Positions 1,868 through 41,432 of a stretch of 64,000 nt of DNA are shown in pieces. Numbering within the stretch: the first letter of the stretch is position 1; every line of letters starts with the position of its first letter. Where the stretch lies: NCBI RefSeq assembly GCF_055900595.2, contig NZ_JBVWEU010000002.1; one strand, 5' to 3'. A program made the translations under genes and the position numbers. The notes beneath the pieces were generated by a model, which did not search any database, was not told the origin of the DNA, and saw nothing but the letters and a program-made list of their open reading frames with translations. The stretch comes from a plasmid.

Positions 1868-2758
1868 ATGTTCATCTCAGACGAAACGATTCGAATTATT
1901 CATCTGGTCGCCAGACACCAGAACATCACCACCGCAGCCGAACAGTTAAATAAAGTCCCTTCTACTATCAGTTACACCCTGAAGAAAGCGGAAGAAACCC
2001 TGGGCGTTGAACTGTTCATTCGTAAGGGACGATATATTGAATTATCTCCGGCGGGGAGTTACTTCATCGAACATAGCAAAAATATTCTCCGCGATCTGGA
2101 TGCATTAAAGCGCAACACAGTGCTGATTCACGATGGTATTGAGCGTGAACTGACAATTGCGGTGAACAATATTATACCTGGTGATTTTCTGGTGTCATTT
2201 ATTCAAGATTTTGAACGGCAATTCACATCAACAACACTGACGGTAGATATTGAAGTATACAACGGCTGCTGGGATGCGCTGTACAGTAAACGTGCTGATC
2301 TGGTCTACGGTGCTCCTCATGCAGTACCAAGCAGTGAAGGCATCATTAGCGAACCGGTCGGACAAATAGAATGGGATTTTGTCGTCAGCCCACTTCATCC
2401 ACTGGCAGTGAAGCGGAATCCATTAGAAAATAGTGAATTGCGTCATTATCCTGCGGTTTGTATCCGGGATACCTCCGTTAACTTCCCCCCAATGCAAGCC
2501 TGGTTGTTGGAAGGACAAAAACCTATTTTTGTTCCTGACTTCGCCATGGCAATCAGCTTAATAGAACAAAACGTCGGTATTGGTTATATTCCACATCATC
2601 TGGCATTGCCGTTATTGAACAGAGGTAAATTGCTTAAAAAGCCAATGCGCGAACATAAACACGCCACCAAGTTATTTCTTGCCGCTCGTTCCGATGGTAT
2701 AGGAAAAGCCTGTCTGTGGTGCATGTCGTATTTAAGAAATAAGCAATTCATGGCGTAA
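1868..2758 (+). CDS. LysR-family transcriptional regulator (AllS-like)
   Basis: 296 aa; N-terminal HTH motif (ITTAAEQLNKVPSTISYTLKKAEETLGVELF) followed by a LysR substrate-binding domain. Confidence 0.8.
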   Translation: MFISDETIRIIHLVARHQNITTAAEQLNKVPSTISYTLKKAEETLGVELFIRKGRYIELSPAGSYFIEHSKNILRDLDALKRNTVLIHDGIERELTIAVNNIIPGDFLVSFIQDFERQFTSTTLTVDIEVYNGCWDALYSKRADLVYGAPHAVPSSEGIISEPVGQIEWDFVVSPLHPLAVKRNPLENSELRHYPAVCIRDTSVNFPPMQAWLLEGQKPIFVPDFAMAISLIEQNVGIGYIPHHLALPLLNRGKLLKKPMREHKHATKLFLAARSDGIGKACLWCMSYLRNKQFMA

Positions 2759-2976
2759 TACCATCAATACAGTGATATTGCCAGGCTCTTCCAGGGTTAT
2801 ACTGAATGCAATGATCCGAAAGGATGATGAATGGATTGATTCATACCACAAGTTTTCATTTTGACATCCTCCACGCCCTAAGGACGAGGGGTCCTGCTTC
2901 AACGGGCGGCATCCGTCATCCGCCAATACATTGAATAGCAGCAGACACCTGGTTAGGTGGAAAACAGCGCCTTATA

Positions 2977-2999
2977 TCCCCGCTGAAGGACGGGGTTTT
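2977..2999 (+). terminator. possible rho-independent terminator
   Basis: hairpin ccccg-ctgaagga-cgggg followed by TTTTA, about 220 bp downstream of the LysR gene. Confidence 0.3.
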
Positions 3000-3173
3000 A
3001 CGGTGCACGGATAAAAGGAGCATGAATGATGGAGTATGTAGAAGTATCGGAGAAAATTTGATATTCTTCTTGATAAAATGAGATTTTCTGCACATATAAG
3101 CATACAGGAGATTCATAGTACAAAAATAAAAAATCATAATAATAAACTTAAATTGACATAACTATAATCAACT

Positions 3174-3581
3174 TTGAACAGGAATATATTAATGATAAAA
3201 CAAAAGGTATTTTTCTCAGGTACTGTACTAGCTATTTTTTTATCTCTCAGCAACGTATCTTTGGCTTCCGGCCTGGATAAAAACATGCAGTCTCTTGCCA
3301 AAAGTATGAGTATTCTACAATCTTCCAATGATAAATCATCACTATTAAATGCTCTTGAAATGATGGATAAATCTGTAGATTCTTCTATGAATATTATTCC
3401 TGAAAAGATAGATGTTAATGATAAAGTTTCTGTAGATAATTATAAGGAAGAGTTAAAAAAACTACAACATGAAATCAATATTGCAAAAAAGAAAGTTGAG
3501 GACGGGAATATAGAATCATTACGTGAGTCTCTGGATAAAATGAACGATATAAAACTTGAAGGTCACCGAAAATTCAGATGA
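3174..3581 (+). CDS. cytochrome b562-family periplasmic protein (CybC-like), divergent
   Basis: 135 aa with signal peptide; alignable to cytochrome b562 including a Met near the mature N-terminus (LDKNMQSL) and a C-terminal His (EGHRKFR) at the expected heme-ligand positions; gene is AT-rich relative to its surroundings. Confidence 0.5.
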   Translation: MNRNILMIKQKVFFSGTVLAIFLSLSNVSLASGLDKNMQSLAKSMSILQSSNDKSSLLNALEMMDKSVDSSMNIIPEKIDVNDKVSVDNYKEELKKLQHEINIAKKKVEDGNIESLRESLDKMNDIKLEGHRKFR

Positions 3582-3832
3582 TCTACAAAAATAAATTTTA
3601 ATATTTAAATACGGCAATATATTTTATCATGTATTGCCGTCTTGGCGTATTCTTTCCGTTCCATTCAATTGCATCTGGCATAACAAGAGAAATAGTAGAC
3701 TCCTCATTACTGCTGTTGTATAACTGCGCACCATAATCTGCTAGACTGGCCCCCTGAATCTCCAGACAACCAATATCACTTAAATAAGTGATAGTCTTAA
3801 TACTAGTTTTTAGACTAGTCATTGGAGAGCAG

Positions 3833-4198
3833 ATGATTGATGTCTTAGGACCGGAGAAACGCAGACGGCGTACTACACAGGAAAAGATCGCTATTGTTCA
3901 GCAGAGTTTTGAACCGGGAATGACGGTCTCCCTTGTAGCCCGGCAACACGGTGTGGCAGCCAGCCAGCTATTTCTCTGGCGCAAGCAATACCAGGAGGGA
4001 AGTCTTACTGCTGTGGCCGCAGGAGAGCAGGTCGTTCCTGCCTCTGAACTTGCTGCTGCCATGAAGCAGATTAAAGAACTCCAGCGCCTGCTCGGCAAAA
4101 AAACGATGGAAAATGAACTCCTTAAAGAAGCCGTTGAATATGGGCGTGCAAAAAAGTGGATAGCGCACGCGCCCTTATTGCCCGGGGATGGGGAGTAA
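3833..4198 (+). CDS. insC: IS2 transposase OrfA (InsC)
   Basis: [40 protein letters not shown] matches IS2 InsC; the annotated ORF starts 15 codons upstream at 3788. Confidence 0.85.
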
Positions 4199-4821
4199 GC
4201 TTAGTCAGCCGTTGTCTCCGGGTGTCGCGTGCGCAGTTGCACGTCATTCTCAGACGAACCGATGACTGGAAAGATGGTCGCCGCAGCCGTCACTCCGATA
4301 ATACGGATGTGCTTCTCCGTATACACCATGTTATCGGAGAGCTGCCCACGTATGGTTATCGTCGGGTATGGGCGCTGCTTCGCAGACAGGCCGAACTTGA
4401 TGGTATGCCTGCGATCAATGCCAAACGTGTTTACCGGATCATGCGCCAGAATGCGCTGTTGCTTGAGCGAAAAACCGCTGTACCGCCATCGAAGCGGGCA
4501 CATACTGGCAAAGTGGCCGTGAAAGAAAGCAATCAACGATGGTGCTCTGACGGGTTCGAGTTCCGCTGTGATAACGGAGAAAAACTGCGAGTCACGTTCG
4601 CGCTGGACTGCTGTGACCGTGAGGCACTGTACTGGGCGGTCACTACGGGCGGCTTCGACAGTGAAACAGTACAGGACGTCATGCCAGGAGCGGTGGAACG
4701 CCGCTTCGGCAACGAGCTTCCGGCGTCTCCAGTAGAGTGGCTGACGGATAATGGTTCATGCTACCGGGCTAATGAAACACGGCAGTTTGCCCGGATGTTG
4801 GGGCTTGAACCGAAGAACACA
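4156..4821 (+). pseudogene. insD: IS2 transposase OrfB (InsD), truncated after about 222 codons
   Basis: [34 protein letters not shown] matches InsD; the frame then continues in-frame into unrelated ABC-transporter sequence. Confidence 0.8.
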
Positions 4822-5292
4822 GAGTTGAGTGCGTCTATCCTGGAGAACGTTGCTGTTGTGCCTCAAAAAGCCGTTCTGGTGCAGGGAACTATTCGTGATA
4901 ATATTCTGTATGGAACCGATGACATTCTTCCCGATGATGAACTGTTTTGCATCCTGAATTCATTAGGGTTAATTAAAGAGGACTGCGGAGAACATTTCCT
5001 TGCTTTCCTAGACCGGGATATTAATCCTCTGGGTAGTGGTTTGAGTGGTGGAGAGATCCAGCGATTATGCATAGCCCGCGCCCTAGCCCGTAAGAAAAAG
5101 ATTATCGTACTTGATGAACCCACGGCCTCTATTGGCGAAGAACTCGCGATAAAGATCATTACCTATATCCGGCAGCATTGCCCTACCGTTATTATTACAA
5201 CTCATAATCCACGAATTCTGGAGCTCGCCGATCATTTTTTTGATGGTATGTCAAAGTCTTGCGTCATTGCTGGAGAAGGCAGAGACCAATAA
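4822..5292 (+). pseudogene. 3' fragment of an ABC-transporter ATP-binding protein gene (exporter type)
   Basis: translation carries ABC signature LSGGEIQR, Walker [11 protein letters not shown] and H-loop TTHN; the 5' two-thirds of the gene is absent (replaced by IS2). Confidence 0.6.
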
Positions 5293-5493
5293 ACCACACA
5301 CGTTAATTCATTTATATCTAATCGGGGTTGTACGCCGGAAACGCCGAAATTTCCGATACAGCGAATTTGTTGATTTTTGAAGCATGTTTGGAAGGTTTTG
5401 ACGTGTACGTTTATGGTGCAGTAAGTGAGAATTTATTCGTACCAGCCATATGATACGTTACGGGCAGTGATTTTTCGCGCTAGACAGCTATTT

Positions 5494-5746
5494 GGGGTTT
5501 GGGGAGTAGTGGAACTCAAAAGGCGGTTAAGCGGTTCAATTGAATGGTCAATAACAGGTAAATCAATCTGTTGAGATCAACAACGTCGTTTGTTCCGCAA
5601 ACGGCCAGGATGAGTAAAGCCAACTTGGCCCCCCCCAAAACAGATAGCCAAGAACGCAGATTCACGATGTAAATTGGCTGGTTGATTTTTGGCTATTTAA
5701 AATGACCGCTTAACGGCGGTTATTGTTCCACTGAGCCTCAAACCCC
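5494..5746. mobile_element. Tn3-family-derived inverted-repeat miniature element (no transposase)
   Basis: 38-bp terminal inverted repeats ggggtttggggagtagtggaac...gttaag (5494-5531) and the reverse complement of ggggtttgaggctcagtggaacaataaccgccgttaag (5709-5746), closely resembling Tn3/gamma-delta 38-bp IRs, flanking about 177 bp of non-coding DNA. Confidence 0.5.
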
Positions 5747-5969
5747 GAAACCTGGATTTTTCCGCGACCAGTAACGGCGTGGGTTGTCACATAAACGACC
5801 GATTGAGTGACTGTCACTGAAACAACGATTTCTGCATCAGATTTCGTCACATAACCCGTCACCTATTCAACGTCATGCAAATCTGTCAATTACTGGCTTT
5901 GGTTACGGAATTTTCTAGGTTTTCGGCTTAGAACCCCAAATAGTCTTAACGTGGTTTATTTTCCGAATT

Positions 5970-6248
5970 TCAAGCGCCCCCCTGGATGAGCGTGATGATT
6001 ACTGGCGGACCTTTGACGTTCCAGCAAATTCCCCTGTTCCACATAGGTTTCCAGATATGACCGGTTATTTTCACGTTCGGTGTACGTGTTACAGCTGCAT
6101 TATCAATATCATCAGGGATAAAATTGTAAGATCGTGGAAAATGTTTATTCATAGCCCGGATGATGGCTGTCTGTGCATCCTTTGTTCGGGCGCGGTGTTT
6201 CCATTCACGCCAGCCATCCACCTCAGAAATAATAACAGTAATCATCAA
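5970..6248 (-). CDS. hypothetical protein
   Basis: 92-aa ORF immediately downstream of and co-oriented with the 233-aa ORF; no family recognised. Confidence 0.35.
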   Translation of the reverse strand: MMITVIISEVDGWREWKHRARTKDAQTAIIRAMNKHFPRSYNFIPDDIDNAAVTRTPNVKITGHIWKPMWNRGICWNVKGPPVIITLIQGGA

Positions 6249-6302
6249 AACCTCGTGTCGTTACTCAATTTTGATTCCATAGCGGGACAGCATTTCACAT
6301 AA

Positions 6303-7004
6303 TTATGCCCCGTTATGAATGCAGGCGTCCTTCAAATTGCTGTCCGGTGTGACAGTTTTCGATGGTTGGTTGCAACGAGCATCTTCTGTCTCTTTCATCC
6401 TGGCGTTATAACGCTGCGTGTGTTTTTCAAGTTTTGCCTGCGCATACAGCGCTTCTTCCTCCGTTACAGTTCCATGAACTTTGCCATCCAGACCATAACG
6501 CGGAGTACCTGCGACTGATATACGCTGCAGATATTTGTAACCGCCAGTAATCATCCTTACAGCACAATTCCATTCTTTTACAGTTAGTCCACACTCAGGA
6601 CTGGCCGAAATAAAAGCCATGACATCCTTTGAGATGCCTATTTTAAATGCATGATATCCCCCCTCTTCAGCCCGTAACTGAGGGAATGTTTTTTTAACAC
6701 AGTCCAGACTGTGTCGGATAAACTCATGATTCCATCTATTGTTCTTCTTTTTTTTCTTCTTCTTACGTCCTGTTTTTTTCTGTTGTTCCGGGGAACCGGC
6801 CACTGTGGCTGGTATTTCAGGAGGTAATGAGTCGGTTTTAAATTCCATTACTGGCGCTGGTTTTATATCATCAGGAACTGCCTGTACAGCATCATCCTGA
6901 TGAGAAAGAATTCGTCTTTTTTTCTTAATAATAACAACAGGTGACGGTTTCTTTGTAACACTGCCCATATACACACCTCTGCGTATCGTTAATATATAAT
7001 GCAC
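6303..7004 (-). CDS. hypothetical protein with internal poly-lysine tract
   Basis: 233-aa ORF (alternative start MGSV at 6968); KKTGRKKKKKKKNNRW tract encoded by AAG/AAA repeats including an A8 run (T8 on the plus strand at 6748-6755). Confidence 0.4.
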   Translation of the reverse strand: MHYILTIRRGVYMGSVTKKPSPVVIIKKKRRILSHQDDAVQAVPDDIKPAPVMEFKTDSLPPEIPATVAGSPEQQKKTGRKKKKKKKNNRWNHEFIRHSLDCVKKTFPQLRAEEGGYHAFKIGISKDVMAFISASPECGLTVKEWNCAVRMITGGYKYLQRISVAGTPRYGLDGKVHGTVTEEEALYAQAKLEKHTQRYNARMKETEDARCNQPSKTVTPDSNLKDACIHNGA

Positions 7005-7070
7005 GACATACAGATAGTATATATCTGAGTCGGTAAAGTCACCAACAGAAGAATAATAACATGTATTTCA

Positions 7071-7349
7071 TTACTGTTCGCGAATTATCACTCTGGATTC
7101 CTTCCTGGTGACATAAGTACAGTTATCAGGTACATCTTCCATAATAAAAGACATTGCCCCGATTTTAACATTACTTCCGATTTTCACATTTAACCCAATA
7201 ATACATGTATGGGCACCAATATCGACATTATCACCAATAACAATATAGTTTTCCCTACTGTCAGAAACCTTTTCACCAATGGTTGTATTCTGCCGTATAA
7301 TGACATTCTCACCGATATCAACATTACCATGAATGACGATTCCTGCATG
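7071..7349 (-). pseudogene. hexapeptide-repeat acetyltransferase (CysE/WcaB-like), C-terminal half
   Basis: reverse translation HAGIVIHGNVDIGENVIIRQNTTIGE...RVIIREQ* with no start codon; abuts the IS1 end at 7350. Confidence 0.6.
7341..7349. repeat. 9-bp target-site duplication tcctgcatg (left copy)
   Basis: identical 9-mer directly abuts the outward-facing IS1 ends at 7350 and 22357. Confidence 0.7.
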
Positions 7350-7630
7350 GGTAATGACTCCAACTTATTGATAGTGTTTTATGTTCAGATAATGCCCGAT
7401 GACTTTGTCATGCAGCTCCACCGATTTTGAGAACGACAGCGACTTCCGTCCCAGCCGTGCCAGGTGCTGCCTCAGGTTCAGGTTATGCCGCTCAATTCGC
7501 TGCGTATATCGCTTGCTGATTACGTGCAGCTTTCCCTTCAGGCGGGATTCATACAGCGGCCAGCCATCCGTCATCCATATCACCACGTCAAAGGGTGACA
7601 GCAGGCTCATAAGACGCCCCAGCGTCGCCA
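7350..7630 (-). mobile_element. IS1, about 280-bp fragment from the IRR end (inverted orientation)
   Basis: GGTAATGACTCCAACTTATTGATAGTG at 7350; encodes the C-terminal 88 aa of InsB on the minus strand, identical to the copy at 22079-22342; similarity ends at about 7630. Confidence 0.85.
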
Positions 7631-7639
7631 CGGAAAGAA

Positions 7640-25214: not shown

Positions 25215-25312
25215 CTCCCCGCATAGCTGAATTGTTGGCTATGCGGTTTTATGGGGCCCCGGTAATCTTTTCGTACTCGCCAAAGTTGAAGAAGATTATC
25301 GGGGTTTTCGCT
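25215..25312 (+). ncRNA. copA: CopA-like antisense RNA of the repA1 leader
   Basis: two stem-loops on the plus strand (25220-25246 and 25257-25304); second loop contains cgccaaa and is followed by a T-run; boundaries approximate. Confidence 0.45.
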
Positions 25313-25450
25313 TTTCTGGCTCCTGTACATCCACATCAGAACCAGTTCCCTGCCACCTTATGGCGTGGCCAGCCACAAAATTCCTTAAACGATCAGCAAT
25401 CTATCACGCACACCAGAAACAGGCAAGAATGTGATGTCGCTACATTTTAG

Positions 25451-25982: not shown

Positions 25983-26132
25983 TTACTTCCGTGCTTCGTA
26001 GGCCAGAGTTACCTGCACCACTGTATTTCCCCTGTGAATATTCAGCTCACATAACCGTTCTCTGAATATCAGTGAAAAACACAACACCGTGGCGCACACG
26101 GCGAGCAGCCCGATAAGGGCATATTTCGTCAT
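25983..26132 (-). CDS. srnB: Hok/Gef-family toxin (SrnB-like)
   Basis: MTKYALIGLLAVCATVLCFSLIFRERLCELNIHRGNTVVQVTLAYEARK; an overlapping upstream reading frame (MKYLNTTDCSLF...) resembles the mok/srnB' leader. Confidence 0.75.
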   Translation of the reverse strand: MTKYALIGLLAVCATVLCFSLIFRERLCELNIHRGNTVVQVTLAYEARK

Positions 26133-26341
26133 AAACTTTGACCTCTCTGCAAAGAAGAGGCTACAATCAGTAGTGTTAAGGTACTTCATGCAGACCTCAC
26201 GAGTTAATGGATTAACGAGTGGGGTCTTCGCATTTCTGGTACCTGCGTCTTGCCTGAACCAGAAAGGCTCAGACACCCGCCGCGATAATACCACATTCCT
26301 GTCTGGTTACGACGATCTCCATGCCCCCGGTTTTTATTGCA

Positions 26342-27670: not shown

Positions 27671-27915
27671 GTTATTCTCCATATCAGATAAATGGCACCT
27701 GTATTTCAGGCATCCTGAACATTGCAGCACACAATGAATAACACCTTATTTTGTGAAATAAATCACAAAATATAAAATCACGACTTAATACGGAAAAAAC
27801 TCTGTGCTACTCAGAACTGTCCGGTCATACTGCCCGACCGGATATTAAAAAAAGCAAATCTCATAAACTCCTTTCAGCCTTCTGACTTCTGGTGTAATGA
27901 AGGCTGCTTTTTTCA

Positions 27916-28128
27916 TTACACCCTTCCCCGGCAGCGCCGGTGGCAGTGTTCAGCCTTTTTCCGGGCAAACTGCTGCCAGTCTGTCCGGGGAGCTATGCAG
28001 GCAGCCCGTCGCCATGCTTCTGCCGCTTCCATCCAGCGTCCACTGACCTCCAGAATAACGGCCCGCCCGCCGGCACGCTGGTAACGCCAGACCTGACCGT
28101 TCCGTGAACTGTTTCTGAATCCATTCAT
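27916..28128 (-). CDS. hypothetical protein
   Basis: 70-aa ORF downstream of finO. Confidence 0.3.
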   Translation of the reverse strand: MNGFRNSSRNGQVWRYQRAGGRAVILEVSGRWMEAAEAWRRAACIAPRTDWQQFARKKAEHCHRRCRGRV

Positions 28129-29643: not shown

Positions 29644-32600
29644 TCAGTCTCCGCCCAGGGTTTTCTCTTTCTGCAGGTCACGAACCATATCCCGCTCCAT
29701 CTGCTGCAGACGCTCCTGCAGCAGGTTTTCCCGGGCAACCTCGCGGACCGCTTCCCGTTCCCGTTGTGGTTCACGCAGTACACTCTCCGGCAGCGCGGCT
29801 TCCCGTTCAGTTATGGCAGCCCGGTCACGCTCCTGCCCGGCAATTTCCCTGACAGCCAGCTCTGTTTTGCCATCCGGCAGGTCAGGTTTGTTCTCTGCCA
29901 TTTTACGGACAATTTCATCTGCGCGGCGTTCCGTTTCACGGCGGATAGCCTCTTCAGCCTGCCGCTGTGCCAGTACCTCTGCCGTGACCGGTTCGCCATT
30001 TCCGGCACCCGGCTGGACGCTGTTGTCCGGGATATCCCCCCACACGCGGCCACCGGTGATGGCACCGGGATTCCACGGACGGCCTTCACCGGCGATTCTT
30101 ACCACCACACCACTGTCAGGATTATCACGGGCAATCCGGACGCCATCCTGCATATTATCAGCCAGCAGGCTCTCTCCGTTACGGCTGCCCTGCAGGGCCA
30201 CGAACTGCGCATCCCCGCTGCCTTTCACACGGCCTTCACCACTGAATCCCCGCAGCCCGTTTCCGTCATCCGTGGTCAGTGGGTTCAGCCAGATACCTGC
30301 TGACTTGCCGTTACGGTCAAACGCCGGCAGTGCCACATACGGCTGCGGATATTTGCGCCCCGGTGCAATAAACCGTGCAGGACTGTCTCCCCCGGCCAGC
30401 CCCGCCTGACGAAGAACGGCACGGCCTGCCGCCACGTCCCGCAGCTCCCGCGCCGTACTGAACAGCCGCTCTGCATTCATGACCTCCCGGTCCGGTTTCG
30501 GCTCAAACACATCGTGGGCCGTACCTTTCTGTACGGCATTGTTGATGGCATCCGTCCAGCCCTGACGGTTATCGGTGTACACCTGCACATGCTGCTTCAT
30601 ACGCGACAGGGCCACGTAGGCTGACTCAAAGCCGGCCATCAGTTTCCGGTTACCTTCCGTGCCTTCAAGCGCGATGGCAAAGGTTTCACTTGCCCCCTGC
30701 GCACCGTGGGCGGTGATGGCATAAGCCAGGTCAATATGTTGCTCTGCCCGCTCCTGACCGGGGCGAATCACCCGGGTCTGCTGTCCGTCCGACAGCGTGA
30801 CACTGTCACCGGAAACCGCTGTCACCGTCCAGACGCTGTTGGCCACATAGCCGCGCTCCCGATCACTCTTCGTGAAGCGCATCCGGTCACCGGTTCCCAC
30901 CCGGATGGTGTCCGGGGTGTACAGTGTGACGCCTTCAGCCACCGCCTCCCGGGGCGAAATCAGCCGCGTGTTACCTTCCGCATCCTGCAGGGTTATCAGC
31001 CCGTCATCCTTACTGATACCGGCAATCCGGTGATACGCATTATCCACCAGGACAAGTGCGTCCCGATGTGTCTCCCAGGTGGAGAGACGACGCAGTTCTC
31101 CGTCACGTATATTCGCTGTGTTCAGGACAGGCACCATGACCTGCTCTTTGCCCAGCTCACCGGCCTTTTCCCGTGCATCATGAATCATGCTGTTCAGTAC
31201 GCGCCGGTCCTCATTCAGGTGTGTGACAATCAGCGTCTGCTCCCGTGCTTCCGGTGTCCTGCCGGTATAGTCGCGGACAATGGCTTCATACAGTGTCATG
31301 GGGATATCCGGGAAAGCCTCGCCTTTCAGCATCGCCTTCTGCTGCGCTTCTGCCAGTTTCGCTTCCTGGCTGTGACTGAACTCCGTCACGGAGTGCTCCG
31401 GTGCCCATGCGCCCTCCAGACGTGGCACCTGAGACGGTTTCACGCTCTCAAGCCCGGACAGTGCCCTTTCCACATCCCGGTTAATCAGGCTGTATACCGC
31501 CTCCCGCAGTTCCGGCGTCTGACGCACAATCTCCTTCATGATGACCACATCGGCAGCACTGCGCGTCTGCTGGAGACGGAAAGGCTGACCGGGCGCGATG
31601 GCCTGCAGCTGGTCCGTGTCACCGCTGGCCACAGCCCGACCGCCACCGGCCGCAATCAGGGCGTATGCCCGTGCCATGTCGGTATTGCCCACCATTGAGC
31701 TCTCATCGAGCAGGAACAGCGTGTTGCTGAAATCCGGCGTTTCTCCGCTGCGCTGCTGCATCTGCGTGTCATGCAGAAAGGACGCCAGTGTCTGTGCATC
31801 CACGCCGGCGCTGCGCATCTCCCCGACCGCACGGTGCGTGGGGCCCAGCCCAACGACACGGGGACGCTCACTCTCCGGCAGCATGTTCACGGCTGACATC
31901 ACCGCCCGGAACTGTGTGGTCTTACCCACGCCGGCATAGCCCTGCACCACCGTGAAACGGTCGGACGTTTCCAGTATCATGCGGGTGGCGGCACGCTGTC
32001 CTGATGTCAGTTTCTCCATGAGTTCGCCAGGTACTCTCTCCATCAGCGGCGTGACCGCCTCCTTACCTTCGAGAATATGGCGAAGAATGCTCTTTTCTGC
32101 CTCATACGACGCACGGGAAACCAGCAGGCCTGTGCCATAGCCTTTTGCCACATCCACATACAGTAAATCACCGCGTTTTATCTGCGCATTGATTTCCCCT
32201 CCCAGGTCGATAAAACTGGTTCCTTCTGCAGCAAACGACTTCGCCTCTGTCAGCAGGTCCACCATGCTGAAGGCCAGGTTTTTACTTTCCAGCACAGGAA
32301 GGGCCAGATGAATAGCCTGCTGTGCCGGCGTGTGAAGCCCGGCTTTCTGCAGACTGATAGCGGTTTCCAGCAATGTCTCACCGGCACGCGCCTTTATCTG
32401 CTCAGAAACCACCGTAAAGGAGGGATGACGGGCAAGTTTTTCCGCAGTACGGGTTTCATCCAGTGAAGAATACAGCCGGACATCACGACCGCTGCGGGCC
32501 AGACCGTTCAGGGTGGCGTTGTCCATTGCCATCTGTGTGACGGAGGCAAAAACCTTCGCACTGTCGCTGACGGAATGCCCGGGCGTTTCCACCCAGCCGT

Positions 32601-38609: not shown

Positions 38610-41432
38610 TTATTGCTTGTGCTTATCCTGATACTCCTTTGCTCTTTTCATCAGTTCCTGTGGACTGTCAGCCCCGGGCATTCTTTCCTGACCCGATTTT
38701 TCTTCATTATATTTATTATTCTGAGATAATGCCTCTGTTTTATGGTGATTTTGTAGTTCAGAATACTGTCTTCCTACAATATTTTCTTCGCCACGTATGC
38801 TGCTCTGAGTATCTCCGATATTGCCTCTGTATTCTGTGACCATATTATCAACCTGATGTTTTACATCATTACGGATATTACTGTCCTGCGTTCTTTGCTC
38901 AATAATGGCCTGATGCCCCTGATGATCAGCAATAATATCCTGGCTGCCACCCCCCGAAGGTACGCTCTCCATTCCTTTACCGATGTCCCCACGGGATTCA
39001 CGCCAGGCATTATCAACACCAGGCTGCACCTGTTCCTGAACAAAAGACCACGCCATAGCCCGACGGCGTTCTGCAATCTCCGGGGAACTGGTGTTTGTCA
39101 GAATAGCTTCGGCATCCTGCGGCGCGTGTTTCATCACATACTGTGCAAACTGTTGCGACAGGTCTTCACTCATCTGCCCACTCATGCTTTCAGTACGGGA
39201 TGCCATTTCAGCATATTCATGGCTGCGGGTCATATTCGTCGTGTACTGGTCGTAACTCTGTTTTGCTGAGTTCAGGGCTGCAGACAGCTGGTCCACACGG
39301 GAATCGGCATTATTGTCCGTATGGCTGCCGGATTCACTGACCTTGCGACTGGTAAAGTAATCGCTGGCCTCTTTAAAGTCTTGTGTAGCCCTGGCATCGA
39401 TATCATGGCGAGCATCATGGCTGGCCCGTGAACCACTGCTGGCCTGATGCGCATCCTCATCACTCCAGTCAATACTTGCCCGACCACCACCTCTAACACC
39501 TACGCCACCACCAACACCAAGAATTTTAGGTTTAACCCCCCATTCAGCATGAGCATCGCCATACATCCCCGCAGAACCTCTCGTACTTCTTGATGCCAGT
39601 TCTCTTGTCGCCTGCTCATTACTGATATTATGCGCCTTCGCATAGCTTTCCACTGCGCTGCGCATACGGCTGGCCATCATGGAGTCCTGTGCACTCATCG
39701 TGCTGTCAGCACCACCGGTGACAGAATCACTGCTCCCCCGGTTAGAACCAAACTGACTGAGCGAGTTCCAGGCACTGGCAATACTGCTGCTGAACCCATG
39801 CAGGGCGCTTTCTGCTCTGTTCGACGCCTCCCGGGCCATTTCCTGTTGTGCCGCCGCAATCTGACGCGTTGCATTGATACCGACCGGTAAACGGGACATC
39901 GCCCCGCTCGCATCCATCACCATATTACCGTCACGGGTCTGTGTGGCGGTTGCGCCACTGCCGGTCTGGTACATCATCTGACCAAACGACGTGGTGCTGT
40001 TGGTGCTCCAGCTGAATCCGTTCACGTTTTCCGTCTGCATGTTGCCGTAGGAGTAATTACCGTCAACCACACTACCTGCCGCACTGGCAGTCGGGCTGAT
40101 AGCAGAGGAAGCGAAATGGCTGTACACACTGGAAAATCCGGCCCCGAGTCCCCTGACCATCATCCAGGATAATGGCGGGATCATCATGGAAAGATACCCG
40201 GCAGTGGAAGCCAGATCGGAGTATTTCAGCTGTATCTGTGAAATTTCCGAGAGCACCACCGGTGCACCATTCTGCTTCGCATAAAATGTCATGGCGCTGT
40301 TCAGAATGGCGTACAACATTGGCCATGACTGCAACCACATCAGGGCAAACACATAGCCTTTCAGGACGGACAGCGTCAGTTTGTTGAAGACAGCCGCCAG
40401 TACCAGAAGCGGGAAAATACCGATGGCGATCCCCGTCAGGATGGTCTGCGTCATGGGCAGTGTCCGCATCGCCACATGACCGATGGAGACATGTGCCAGA
40501 CGTTGCTTCTCCATCGATGACGTGGTGGCCAGATTCACCAGGCTGGCTGAATCACCATTACGCGCGGCATAACTGGTGATCCCCTCCTTCAGCGCATTGA
40601 TGGTGACATTCTGGCGGATGATCTGGCTGGCTGATTTACTTGAGCCATAGAAGTAACTGTAACTGTCGCCAATCAGCGTACTGAACAACAGGTTCGGATC
40701 AGGGCGTCCACCAAATAGCTGCTGGGCATAATAATGCCAGGTTTTTCCGCCACTCTGTGTATCCAGATTCAGCTTGTCTTTCAGCGAAACCGACGCGTCC
40801 TTACAGGTCACGAAATTATTATTGCTGTCATAAACGCCCCGTAGCGGACTGGGGCGGGAAAAAATCAGCGTGTAGGGATCAGCGGAGGCCATCAGCTCCT
40901 CCAGCGTGTATTTGTGGTTCAGGTAAATATCCCCCATCACGCAGTTCTGCACATAATCCTGGAAAAGATTGGCGATTTCCGGATTGCGGGACAAAAAGTC
41001 GGTGCTTTTTGATACCAGTTCTGCGCCAAACAGCATCCCCGTTTTGCTGTAGGTGACACTGTCCGGTTGCGTGAAGATCATCTCGTAACTGGCCACCATT
41101 GCATGCCCGATACGGGTCGTCAGTGAAAGTGGCATCGCCAGTCCGACCGGCACATTATCCACCCGGTGAACTTTGACCAGGTCACTGTTATCAATAATCT
41201 GCACCGATGTGCGGACATTAACCAGCAGGCTGATAAGCACAAACACGGCCACCCAGCCCAGCAAATCCATCACGTTGTGCCGCTGTACCCACATTACGGC
41301 CACCGCGAGAACAGACAATGTGAGCGCAATTTTTTCAATGGAATCCCACGTCCGGGTCCCCATAAAGGCGGCAATGGCATTCAGGTTATTCCGCAACCAC
41401 TCACCACCGGCAATCACATAAACTTCATTCAC
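38610..41432 (-). CDS. traG: mating-pair stabilisation protein TraG
   Basis: 940 aa; position and size. Confidence 0.9.
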   Translation of the reverse strand: MNEVYVIAGGEWLRNNLNAIAAFMGTRTWDSIEKIALTLSVLAVAVMWVQRHNVMDLLGWVAVFVLISLLVNVRTSVQIIDNSDLVKVHRVDNVPVGLAMPLSLTTRIGHAMVASYEMIFTQPDSVTYSKTGMLFGAELVSKSTDFLSRNPEIANLFQDYVQNCVMGDIYLNHKYTLEELMASADPYTLIFSRPSPLRGVYDSNNNFVTCKDASVSLKDKLNLDTQSGGKTWHYYAQQLFGGRPDPNLLFSTLIGDSYSYFYGSSKSASQIIRQNVTINALKEGITSYAARNGDSASLVNLATTSSMEKQRLAHVSIGHVAMRTLPMTQTILTGIAIGIFPLLVLAAVFNKLTLSVLKGYVFALMWLQSWPMLYAILNSAMTFYAKQNGAPVVLSEISQIQLKYSDLASTAGYLSMMIPPLSWMMVRGLGAGFSSVYSHFASSAISPTASAAGSVVDGNYSYGNMQTENVNGFSWSTNSTTSFGQMMYQTGSGATATQTRDGNMVMDASGAMSRLPVGINATRQIAAAQQEMAREASNRAESALHGFSSSIASAWNSLSQFGSNRGSSDSVTGGADSTMSAQDSMMASRMRSAVESYAKAHNISNEQATRELASRSTRGSAGMYGDAHAEWGVKPKILGVGGGVGVRGGGRASIDWSDEDAHQASSGSRASHDARHDIDARATQDFKEASDYFTSRKVSESGSHTDNNADSRVDQLSAALNSAKQSYDQYTTNMTRSHEYAEMASRTESMSGQMSEDLSQQFAQYVMKHAPQDAEAILTNTSSPEIAERRRAMAWSFVQEQVQPGVDNAWRESRGDIGKGMESVPSGGGSQDIIADHQGHQAIIEQRTQDSNIRNDVKHQVDNMVTEYRGNIGDTQSSIRGEENIVGRQYSELQNHHKTEALSQNNKYNEEKSGQERMPGADSPQELMKRAKEYQDKHKQ

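Follow-up and report, generated by a model that had tools for sequence, protein, structure and literature searches.

The window analysed here, a 64,000-nucleotide (nt) stretch of the plasmid contig NZ_JBVWEU010000002.1 (assembly GCF_055900595.2), carries near its start a pair of genes, the larger for a protein with a ProQ/FinO domain resembling the IncI RNA chaperone FopA and the smaller for a hypothetical protein. The two open reading frames (ORFs) lie on the minus strand, 54 nt apart; as the first-pass annotation of the window had noted, they are co-oriented, with an inverted-repeat element (5491-5749) on one side and the 3′ fragment of an acetyltransferase gene on the other. The lengths of 233 and 92 amino acids (aa) that it gave are those of mechanical ORF limits (6303-7004 from a GTG start and 5970-6248 from a TTG start, respectively), not of annotated starts. 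In the identical reference plasmids the annotated starts are ATG 6968, which gives a large protein of 221 aa, and ATG 6245, which gives a small protein of 96 aa in the references and 91 aa here. A GAGG-type ribosome-binding site precedes each of these ATGs (5 nt upstream in the case of the small ORF), and they are likely the true starts. Over its first 25 kb, the window agrees at 99.5-99.7% with many IncF plasmids of the ColV type from avian and extra-intestinal pathogenic E. coli. About 85 plasmids, pAPEC-O2-ColV among them, match positions 5700-7300 at 99.1% identity, and on these the pair is annotated as 'ProQ/FINO family protein' (WP_000536047.1) and 'hypothetical protein' (WP_000633743.1). 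When the window is aligned with two reference plasmids, no base of the large gene differs, and the sole gap is a 15-bp deletion in the small ORF.

The large ORF is a fopA-like gene (6303..6968, minus strand; stop codon at 6303-6305) for a 221-aa ProQ/FinO-domain protein, and the 233-aa version extends it to an in-frame GTG upstream, at 7004. Its product is 100% identical to WP_000536047.1 of pAPEC-O2-ColV and matches Pfam PF04352 (ProQ/FinO): the score is 49.3 bits where the gathering threshold is 27, the E-value is 5.5e-13, and the match spans positions 7-108 of the 109 in the profile. It matches no other Pfam domain. Because its matches to the NCBIfam models for ProQ (equivalog) and FinO (subfamily) fall under their cut-offs, the protein is neither ProQ nor FinO proper; among solved chains, it matches by sequence ProQ (E = 2e-06), RocC and FinO (PDB 1dvo, E = 0.021). 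YafB, the IncI RNA chaperone renamed FopA by Gerovac et al. 2020 (PMC7491321), where it is described as an abundant RNA-binding protein of pCol1B9 (IncI, Salmonella), aligns with it end to end at 41-44% identity, both basic stretches of the N-terminal extension included. Tyr146 and Arg157, which are RNA-binding residues of FopA and ProQ (PMC7491321), are the same in this protein, in YafB and in two further plasmid homologues aligned with them. AlphaFold2 places a FinO/ProQ fold at residues 81-199 (6372..6728, minus strand) with a predicted local distance difference test score (pLDDT) of 93-97: five helices and a two-stranded sheet in the form of a beta-hairpin (H81-94, H112-122, H130-141, H144-150, E156-158, E164-167 and H170-199), which agrees, on a comparison by description, with the family fold set out in PMC9977716.

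A translated search of plasmids returned 128 records that hold a copy of 90% identity or more, and more than 3,000 with homologues of less than 60% identity that cover the domain only, among them IncI genes labelled yafB. An exhaustive search of representative proteins yielded 127 relatives and reached the FopA clade; a word-indexed search with the 221-aa protein found only five near-identical clusters. Clusters of intact forms hold 806, 92 and 10 members and those of frameshifted forms 1-2. When the full-length relatives are aligned, the motif PV(I/V)VVKK(K/R)R is conserved among homologues of 24-43% identity, and most have the second basic stretch in variable sequence, one relative with its own run of seven lysines. 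The description of both ORFs as orphans therefore fails for the large one, given the PF04352 match, the RefSeq name and the full-length alignment with FopA/YafB.

Residues 1-80 (6729..6968, minus strand) form an N-terminal extension that is predicted to be disordered (pLDDT 53-66, without secondary structure) and that carries two basic stretches, a layout that is the same across the FopA clade. Both the KKKRR and the poly-lysine stretch to which the first-pass annotation had drawn attention are present, and both fall within this extension. The first, KKKRR (codons 15-19; 6912..6926, minus strand), contains an A7 run at 6917-6923 and corresponds to KKRRT in YafB; the second, RKKKKKKK, corresponds to RKKKKKRHR. 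Its seven lysines (the K7 tract, residues 69-75; 6744..6764, minus strand) sit in the disordered basic arm just ahead of helix 1 of the FinO fold. On the coding strand, CAG AAA AAA ACA (QKKT) is followed by GGA CGT, by the seven lysine codons AAG AAG AAG AAA AAA AAG AAG and by AAC. Read directly off the window sequence, the tract holds an A8 run (T8 at 6748-6755 on the plus strand) with an in-frame A_AAA_AAG, and the QKKT codons hold an A7 run (T7 at 6773-6779); besides these, the large gene has two more A7 runs, the one in KKKRR and one at 6689-6695. Judged by sequence comparison, the lysine tract is part of the normal basic N-terminal arm of the FopA clade; the protein thus has a known family, in which the tract itself is not invariant. 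A role in non-specific RNA affinity and RNA-RNA annealing has been proposed for the N-terminus of FinO. By analogy, KKKRR and RKKKKKKK would most likely add non-specific RNA affinity and aid RNA-RNA annealing. The A8 and A7 runs simply reflect lysine encoding, as mutational weak spots and not as a programmed switch.

I-complex plasmids of the IncK2/Z type are the native setting of the fopA-like gene. Their genes run in the order repA, a Phd/RelE toxin-antitoxin pair, a serine acetyltransferase gene, the ProQ/FinO gene, the small ORF and a colicin lysis gene. The acetyltransferase gene, complete on these plasmids, precedes the ProQ/FinO gene in the same orientation, and a repZ-type replicon with a PK-repZ pseudoknot is about 3 kb away from the latter. 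In pTMSA970, one such plasmid, Rfam detects PK-repZ beside repA with 169 bits, along with a CopA-like antisense match. An IncK2/Z replicon with PK-repZ beside repA is of the type on which FopA acts: on pCol1B9, FopA binds the Inc antisense RNA and speeds the formation of the Inc-repZ duplex (PMC7491321). By analogy with pCol1B9, the chaperone of IncK2/Z plasmids probably helps an Inc-type antisense RNA to repress the replication initiator. In general, the FinO fold grips a stem-loop and the single-stranded 3′ tail behind it, most often those of an antisense-RNA terminator. At the 3′ end of the gene (window 6303-6370), ColV and IncK2/Z copies (L007-L010) differ by a single-base indel, TCGA-AAAC against TCGACAAAC, and the tails that follow the FinO domain end in ...DACIHNGA in the 221-aa ColV protein and in ...FEGRLHS in the 218-aa IncK2/Z protein. 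Between the window and the IncK2/Z copies, the chaperone gene has a ratio of nonsynonymous to synonymous polymorphism (pN/pS) of 0.15-0.50 and the small ORF one of 0.49-0.61, values that point to purifying selection on both.

The flanks of the pair in the window are different. The serine acetyltransferase gene survives as a 3′ fragment (7071..7364, minus strand) cut at 7365 by the insertion sequence (IS) IS1, and the NCBI annotation pipeline PGAP labels the ColV copy 'incomplete; missing N-terminus'. An IS1 InsB-like ORF occupies 7365-7631 in the ORF list, where the references annotate an IS1A transposase. On the other side lies the inverted-repeat-bounded miniature element (5491..5749, not assigned to a strand), whose 64-nt arms (5491-5554 and 5686-5749) are 70% complementary. 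Because the acetyltransferase gene is cut by IS1, a miniature element is present and PK-repZ is missing, we read the three-gene segment as a relic of about 1.4 kb of I-complex backbone on an IncF plasmid.

We put at about 80% the probability that the large ORF encodes a FopA-clade member of the ProQ/FinO RNA chaperones, taken jointly with an incidental lysine tract and an IncK2/Z origin. Five points weigh against this reading. RNA binding, targets and an effect on copy number would all carry over by analogy from FopA at 41-44% identity. The orientation and the neighbours of the gene differ from those of FopA, with the serine acetyltransferase gene and the small ORF here and yafA and yagA in IncI. 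Rfam finds neither PK-repZ nor a repZ-type replicon in the 64-kb window, so the mechanism stated for IncK2/Z cannot hold unchanged here. The DNA of the ColV copies is over 99% identical, and their intactness therefore says little about selection in the ColV setting. Lastly, the length of the A-runs varies among assemblies, in which real alleles and sequencing error are not separable.

On the ColV plasmid, the chaperone may at present be a relic or may be retargeted to CopA or FinP. Among the alternatives, the one with most weight, though we still doubt it, is that the ColV segment is a decaying remnant without current function, an I-complex fragment captured between mobile elements. IS1 and the miniature inverted-repeat element at the borders, the truncated acetyltransferase gene upstream and the lack of a repZ-type replicon or PK-repZ in the window all fit such decay, as do the frameshifted alleles on several plasmids and the loss of five residues, near-invariant L53 and F54 included, from the small ORF of the window. 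The window, however, has a complete chaperone ORF, as do about 110 of 136 complete plasmids, which carry the exact tract; over the 98-nt tract region, 113 of 135 records from complete E. coli genomes match exactly. Moreover, FinO-domain proteins can adopt RNAs of co-resident replicons, as FinO does in binding RepX (PMC8136791; review PMC9977716), and the window offers a conceivable ligand in a CopA antisense RNA. The repZ-type replicon with Inc antisense RNA, a trait of the FopA clade, is seen in the IncK2/Z plasmids, and the window has only the CopA-like antisense RNA of its IncFII replicon (25223-25313, plus strand; above the Rfam gathering score). That the stranded chaperone has been retargeted to this CopA or to FinP, in a cross-replicon control like that of FinO and RepX, is less probable again, although likelier than recoding at the A-run.

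The small ORF (5970..6245, minus strand; 91 aa here and 96-108 aa elsewhere; reference WP_000633743.1) encodes a hypothetical protein of an enterobacterial-plasmid family, and for it the orphan label stands: it has no Pfam, NCBIfam, PHROG or PADLOC match, no sequence-profile signal and no robust fold match. Its homologues fall into 55 protein clusters, all from Enterobacteriaceae and 65-98% identical, none with a Pfam domain, and an alignment of 20 members has 27 invariant columns, including GHIW within a largely conserved GHIWKPMW. The AlphaFold2 model (pLDDT 87.9) has an alpha+beta fold, for which Foldseek returned nothing under E = 0.001 in PDB and BFVD; the likeness to the anti-CRISPR protein AcrIE2 (PDB 7chq; 7% identity, root-mean-square deviation 3.2 Å) is a lead and not an assignment. 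The in-frame 15-bp deletion, with its junction at 6095..6096 (minus strand) between two TGCA repeats, removes residues 50-54 (APVLF), which lie at the start of the second helix and include the near-invariant L53 and F54. It occurs in none of 132 plasmid records of complete E. coli genomes and is absent from the best plasmid hits too. The site may nonetheless tolerate change, because one homologue has a 3-residue gap there. As far as sequence and occurrence can tell, the small ORF is a genuine plasmid gene with a distribution of its own.

It is improbable that the two ORFs make up one functional module in which the small protein is a partner or regulator of the chaperone. They are co-oriented at a spacing of 54 nt, the small ORF has its own GAGG site, and the two are found together in ColV, IncK2/Z and pO145-like plasmids. 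Yet other plasmids carry diverged homologues of the small protein, at 65-79% identity, and have no PF04352 gene within 5 kb of them, which rules out an obligate gene pair; in DNA, the small ORF has matches of 72-79% on other plasmids that do not extend to the chaperone part; and the neighbours of FopA on IncI plasmids, yafA and yagA, are different. On Salmonella plasmid contigs (L013-L016, at about 3482-5324), a homologue of the small ORF lies directly 3′ of a cysteinyl-tRNA-synthetase-like gene (463 aa, PF01406), with TraX-like and TraW-like transfer genes nearby. In pTMSA970 (2440-4607), the fopA-like gene is cut short at its 3′ end (202 aa), an IS91-family transposase gene follows just 3′ of it, and there is no small ORF. 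The fopA-like gene and the small ORF are thus separable, since this plasmid keeps the first without the second.

The homopolymeric runs had been put forward as candidates for slippage-based switching or ribosomal frameshifting. We simulated random choice of lysine codons for a K7 tract and found an A-run of at least 8 in 96-99% of simulations, so the A8 run is not beyond chance; the maximum run stayed at 8 or below in only 12-22%. Of the lysine codons in the tract, 5 are AAG and 2 are AAA, compared with 4 AAG and 17 AAA in the rest of the gene (p = 0.004), and this enrichment of AAG means that codon choice shortens the A-run. In FopA, the corresponding RKKKKKR is encoded as AGG AAG AAG AAA AAG AAA AGA, with neither a long A-run nor the heptamer.

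The runs are indeed the places where indels fall among the copies of the large gene, which is present in 133-134 of 5,426 complete E. coli genomes (about 2.5%) and is always plasmid-borne. An A7 tract, counted as an exact match over 99 nt and differing from the window tract only by the change from A8 to A7, occurs in three records (IMT5155, APEC37 and EC7072022BGR), in two of which (APEC37 and EC7072022BGR) PGAP labels the gene 'frameshifted'; an A9 tract has no exact match among about 136 complete plasmid records. Further variants are an A7 among other A-run changes in pO145-12761, an A6 tract in one record and, in a group of IncK2/Z plasmids, an in-frame AAG deletion that gives a K6 allele; AF5 plasmid 4 combines the K6 allele with a shortening of run 2 (6773-6779) to A6 and is a frameshifted copy. 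In the pO145/pO157-like IncFIB lineage (pO145-12761 and pUTME-3-pO157), the runs have changed to A8 (run 1), A7 or A6 (run 3) and A6 (run 4); there, the fopA-like gene is an annotated frameshifted, decayed pseudogene, and the adjacent small ORF and acetyltransferase gene are intact. In pSTEC399_1, which has three A-run deletions, we suspect an assembly error because the record holds 68 annotated features, compared with 116 in a sibling plasmid. The A-run variation as a whole looks like ordinary homopolymer mutation or sequencing error and not like a switch, and some of the variants are probably artefacts.

A phase-variable contingency locus, in which slipped-strand mispairing at A8 would switch the chaperone gene on and off within a population, is accordingly very unlikely. 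Every indel in the first 600 nt or so of the gene sits in an A-run or an AAG repeat (the 3′ tail has single-base indels outside runs), and in the three complete ColV plasmids IMT5155, APEC37 and EC7072022BGR the A7 is the only change. However, A7 is found in only about 2% of records and A9 in none, whereas a reversible switch should show changes either way, with off alleles making up a large share. Codon usage in the tract makes the run shorter, not longer, the FopA homologue retains the lysines without the run, and several variant records carry multiple A-run errors that fit the homopolymer error of long-read or 454 sequencing. Finally, a run of 8 nt is short for phase variation in mismatch-repair-proficient E. 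coli.

Slippage or frameshifting as a programmed mechanism finds no support, since the basic stretch is conserved as protein but the A-run is not conserved as DNA in FopA, AAG codons break the run, stimulators are lacking and the alleles are contractions only. A -1 frameshift on A_AAA_AAG, or transcriptional slippage on A8, that yields a 77-aa basic N-terminal peptide ending in KKKKKK-EEQ, in parallel to the tau and gamma products of dnaX, has in its favour a heptamer in the zero frame (codons 72-74), a stop after 3 codons of the -1 frame and a weak AGGA about 14 nt upstream, but is the least credible of the alternatives, as no structure lies at the usual spacing of 5-9 nt (the only hairpin near the heptamer starts 32 nt 3′, and the 141-nt region folds with z = -0.54 relative to shuffles), the nucleotide sequence of the site is kept only where copies exceed 90% identity (YafB, with AAG AAG AAA AAG AAA, is without it) and the heptamer is present in 68 E. 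coli genes, with spontaneous in vivo frameshifting of about 1e-4 to 1e-5 (PMC9307594). Equally slight are the chances that the site is used at a low level, by -1 frameshifting or RNA-polymerase slippage, to make the 77-aa peptide beside the full chaperone, perhaps with partial rescue of A7 alleles, and so to tune dosage.

Elsewhere in the window, Rfam matches above the gathering score mark a sok antitoxin RNA (26120-26278, minus strand) and, on the plus strand, AS-pc02 (27834-28019), AS-traI (31989-32065) and AS-traG (40628-40713). Within the fopA-like gene, antisense terminator-like hairpins number 3, compared with 1.4 ± 1.2 expected from shuffles, which is not above chance; two of these plus-strand hairpins with T-runs lie at 6664-6696 and 6401-6424, and one uses the T7 at 6689-6695. 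A promoter scan was uninformative (5 sites against 4.0 ± 2.2 expected). A mechanical ORF of 378 aa at 4156-5292 (plus strand) is apparently chimeric, with an IS3-family transposase-like N-terminal part leading into an ATP-binding C-terminal part of an ATP-binding cassette (ABC) transporter (LSGGEIQRL). The references annotate only an 'ATP-binding cassette domain-containing protein' of about 166 aa in this region, and the ORF probably arose when an IS inserted into an ABC gene.

What had looked like an orphan with a slippery poly-lysine tract is thus a FopA-like FinO-domain chaperone with a basic tract as a family trait, which mostly removes a false lead. The orthologue group, at home on IncK2/Z plasmids and a relic on virulence plasmids of the ColV type in avian and extra-intestinal pathogenic E. 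coli, is a little-known branch of the FopA clade; our literature search found no paper on a ProQ/FinO-domain protein of IncK plasmids. Because the ColV copy is apart from its presumed cognate replicon, its RNA partners there bear on plasmid copy-number control and fitness cost. The small ORF, for its part, stands for a conserved family that occurs only on plasmids and whose fold is predicted with confidence.

Among known systems, the frameshift site of dnaX has the identical A_AAA_AAG in the correct frame with a -1 stop soon after, but it also has a closely spaced downstream hairpin and a stronger upstream Shine-Dalgarno-like element; the fopA-like site has no closely spaced hairpin and at most a weak upstream AGGA, and its heptamer is not conserved in the FopA homologue. 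PcnR of IncI2 plasmids (PMC8053102) is likewise a plasmid ProQ/FinO protein, one that represses copy number and is phylogenetically near FopA (PMC9977716), and putative ProQ/FinO proteins have been noted on IncI1 and IncB/O plasmids (PMC8053102). PcnR differs in binding a stem-loop in the repR leader mRNA independently of an antisense RNA (PMC9977716), and IncI2-type matches to the large ORF reach only about 37% identity, in the domain only. FinO of F-like plasmids (PDB 1dvo) is a plasmid-encoded antisense-RNA chaperone (PMC9977716) that shares with the large ORF a FinO domain and a disordered, lysine-rich N-terminal extension. Its similarity to the large ORF is weak (E = 0.021), however, its N-terminal region is unlike that of FopA, and it acts on FinP/traJ and controls conjugation, not replication. 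From FopA, the large ORF is set apart as a distinct orthologue group without DNA-level similarity to yafB, by seven lysines in the second stretch where FopA has five, by an extra C-terminal tail of about 20 aa and, in the window, by residence on an IncF ColV plasmid without the cognate replicon. With FopA, it shares the plasmid location, a length of about 200-220 aa, a central FinO domain with Tyr146 and Arg157 and an N-terminal extension with two positively charged stretches.

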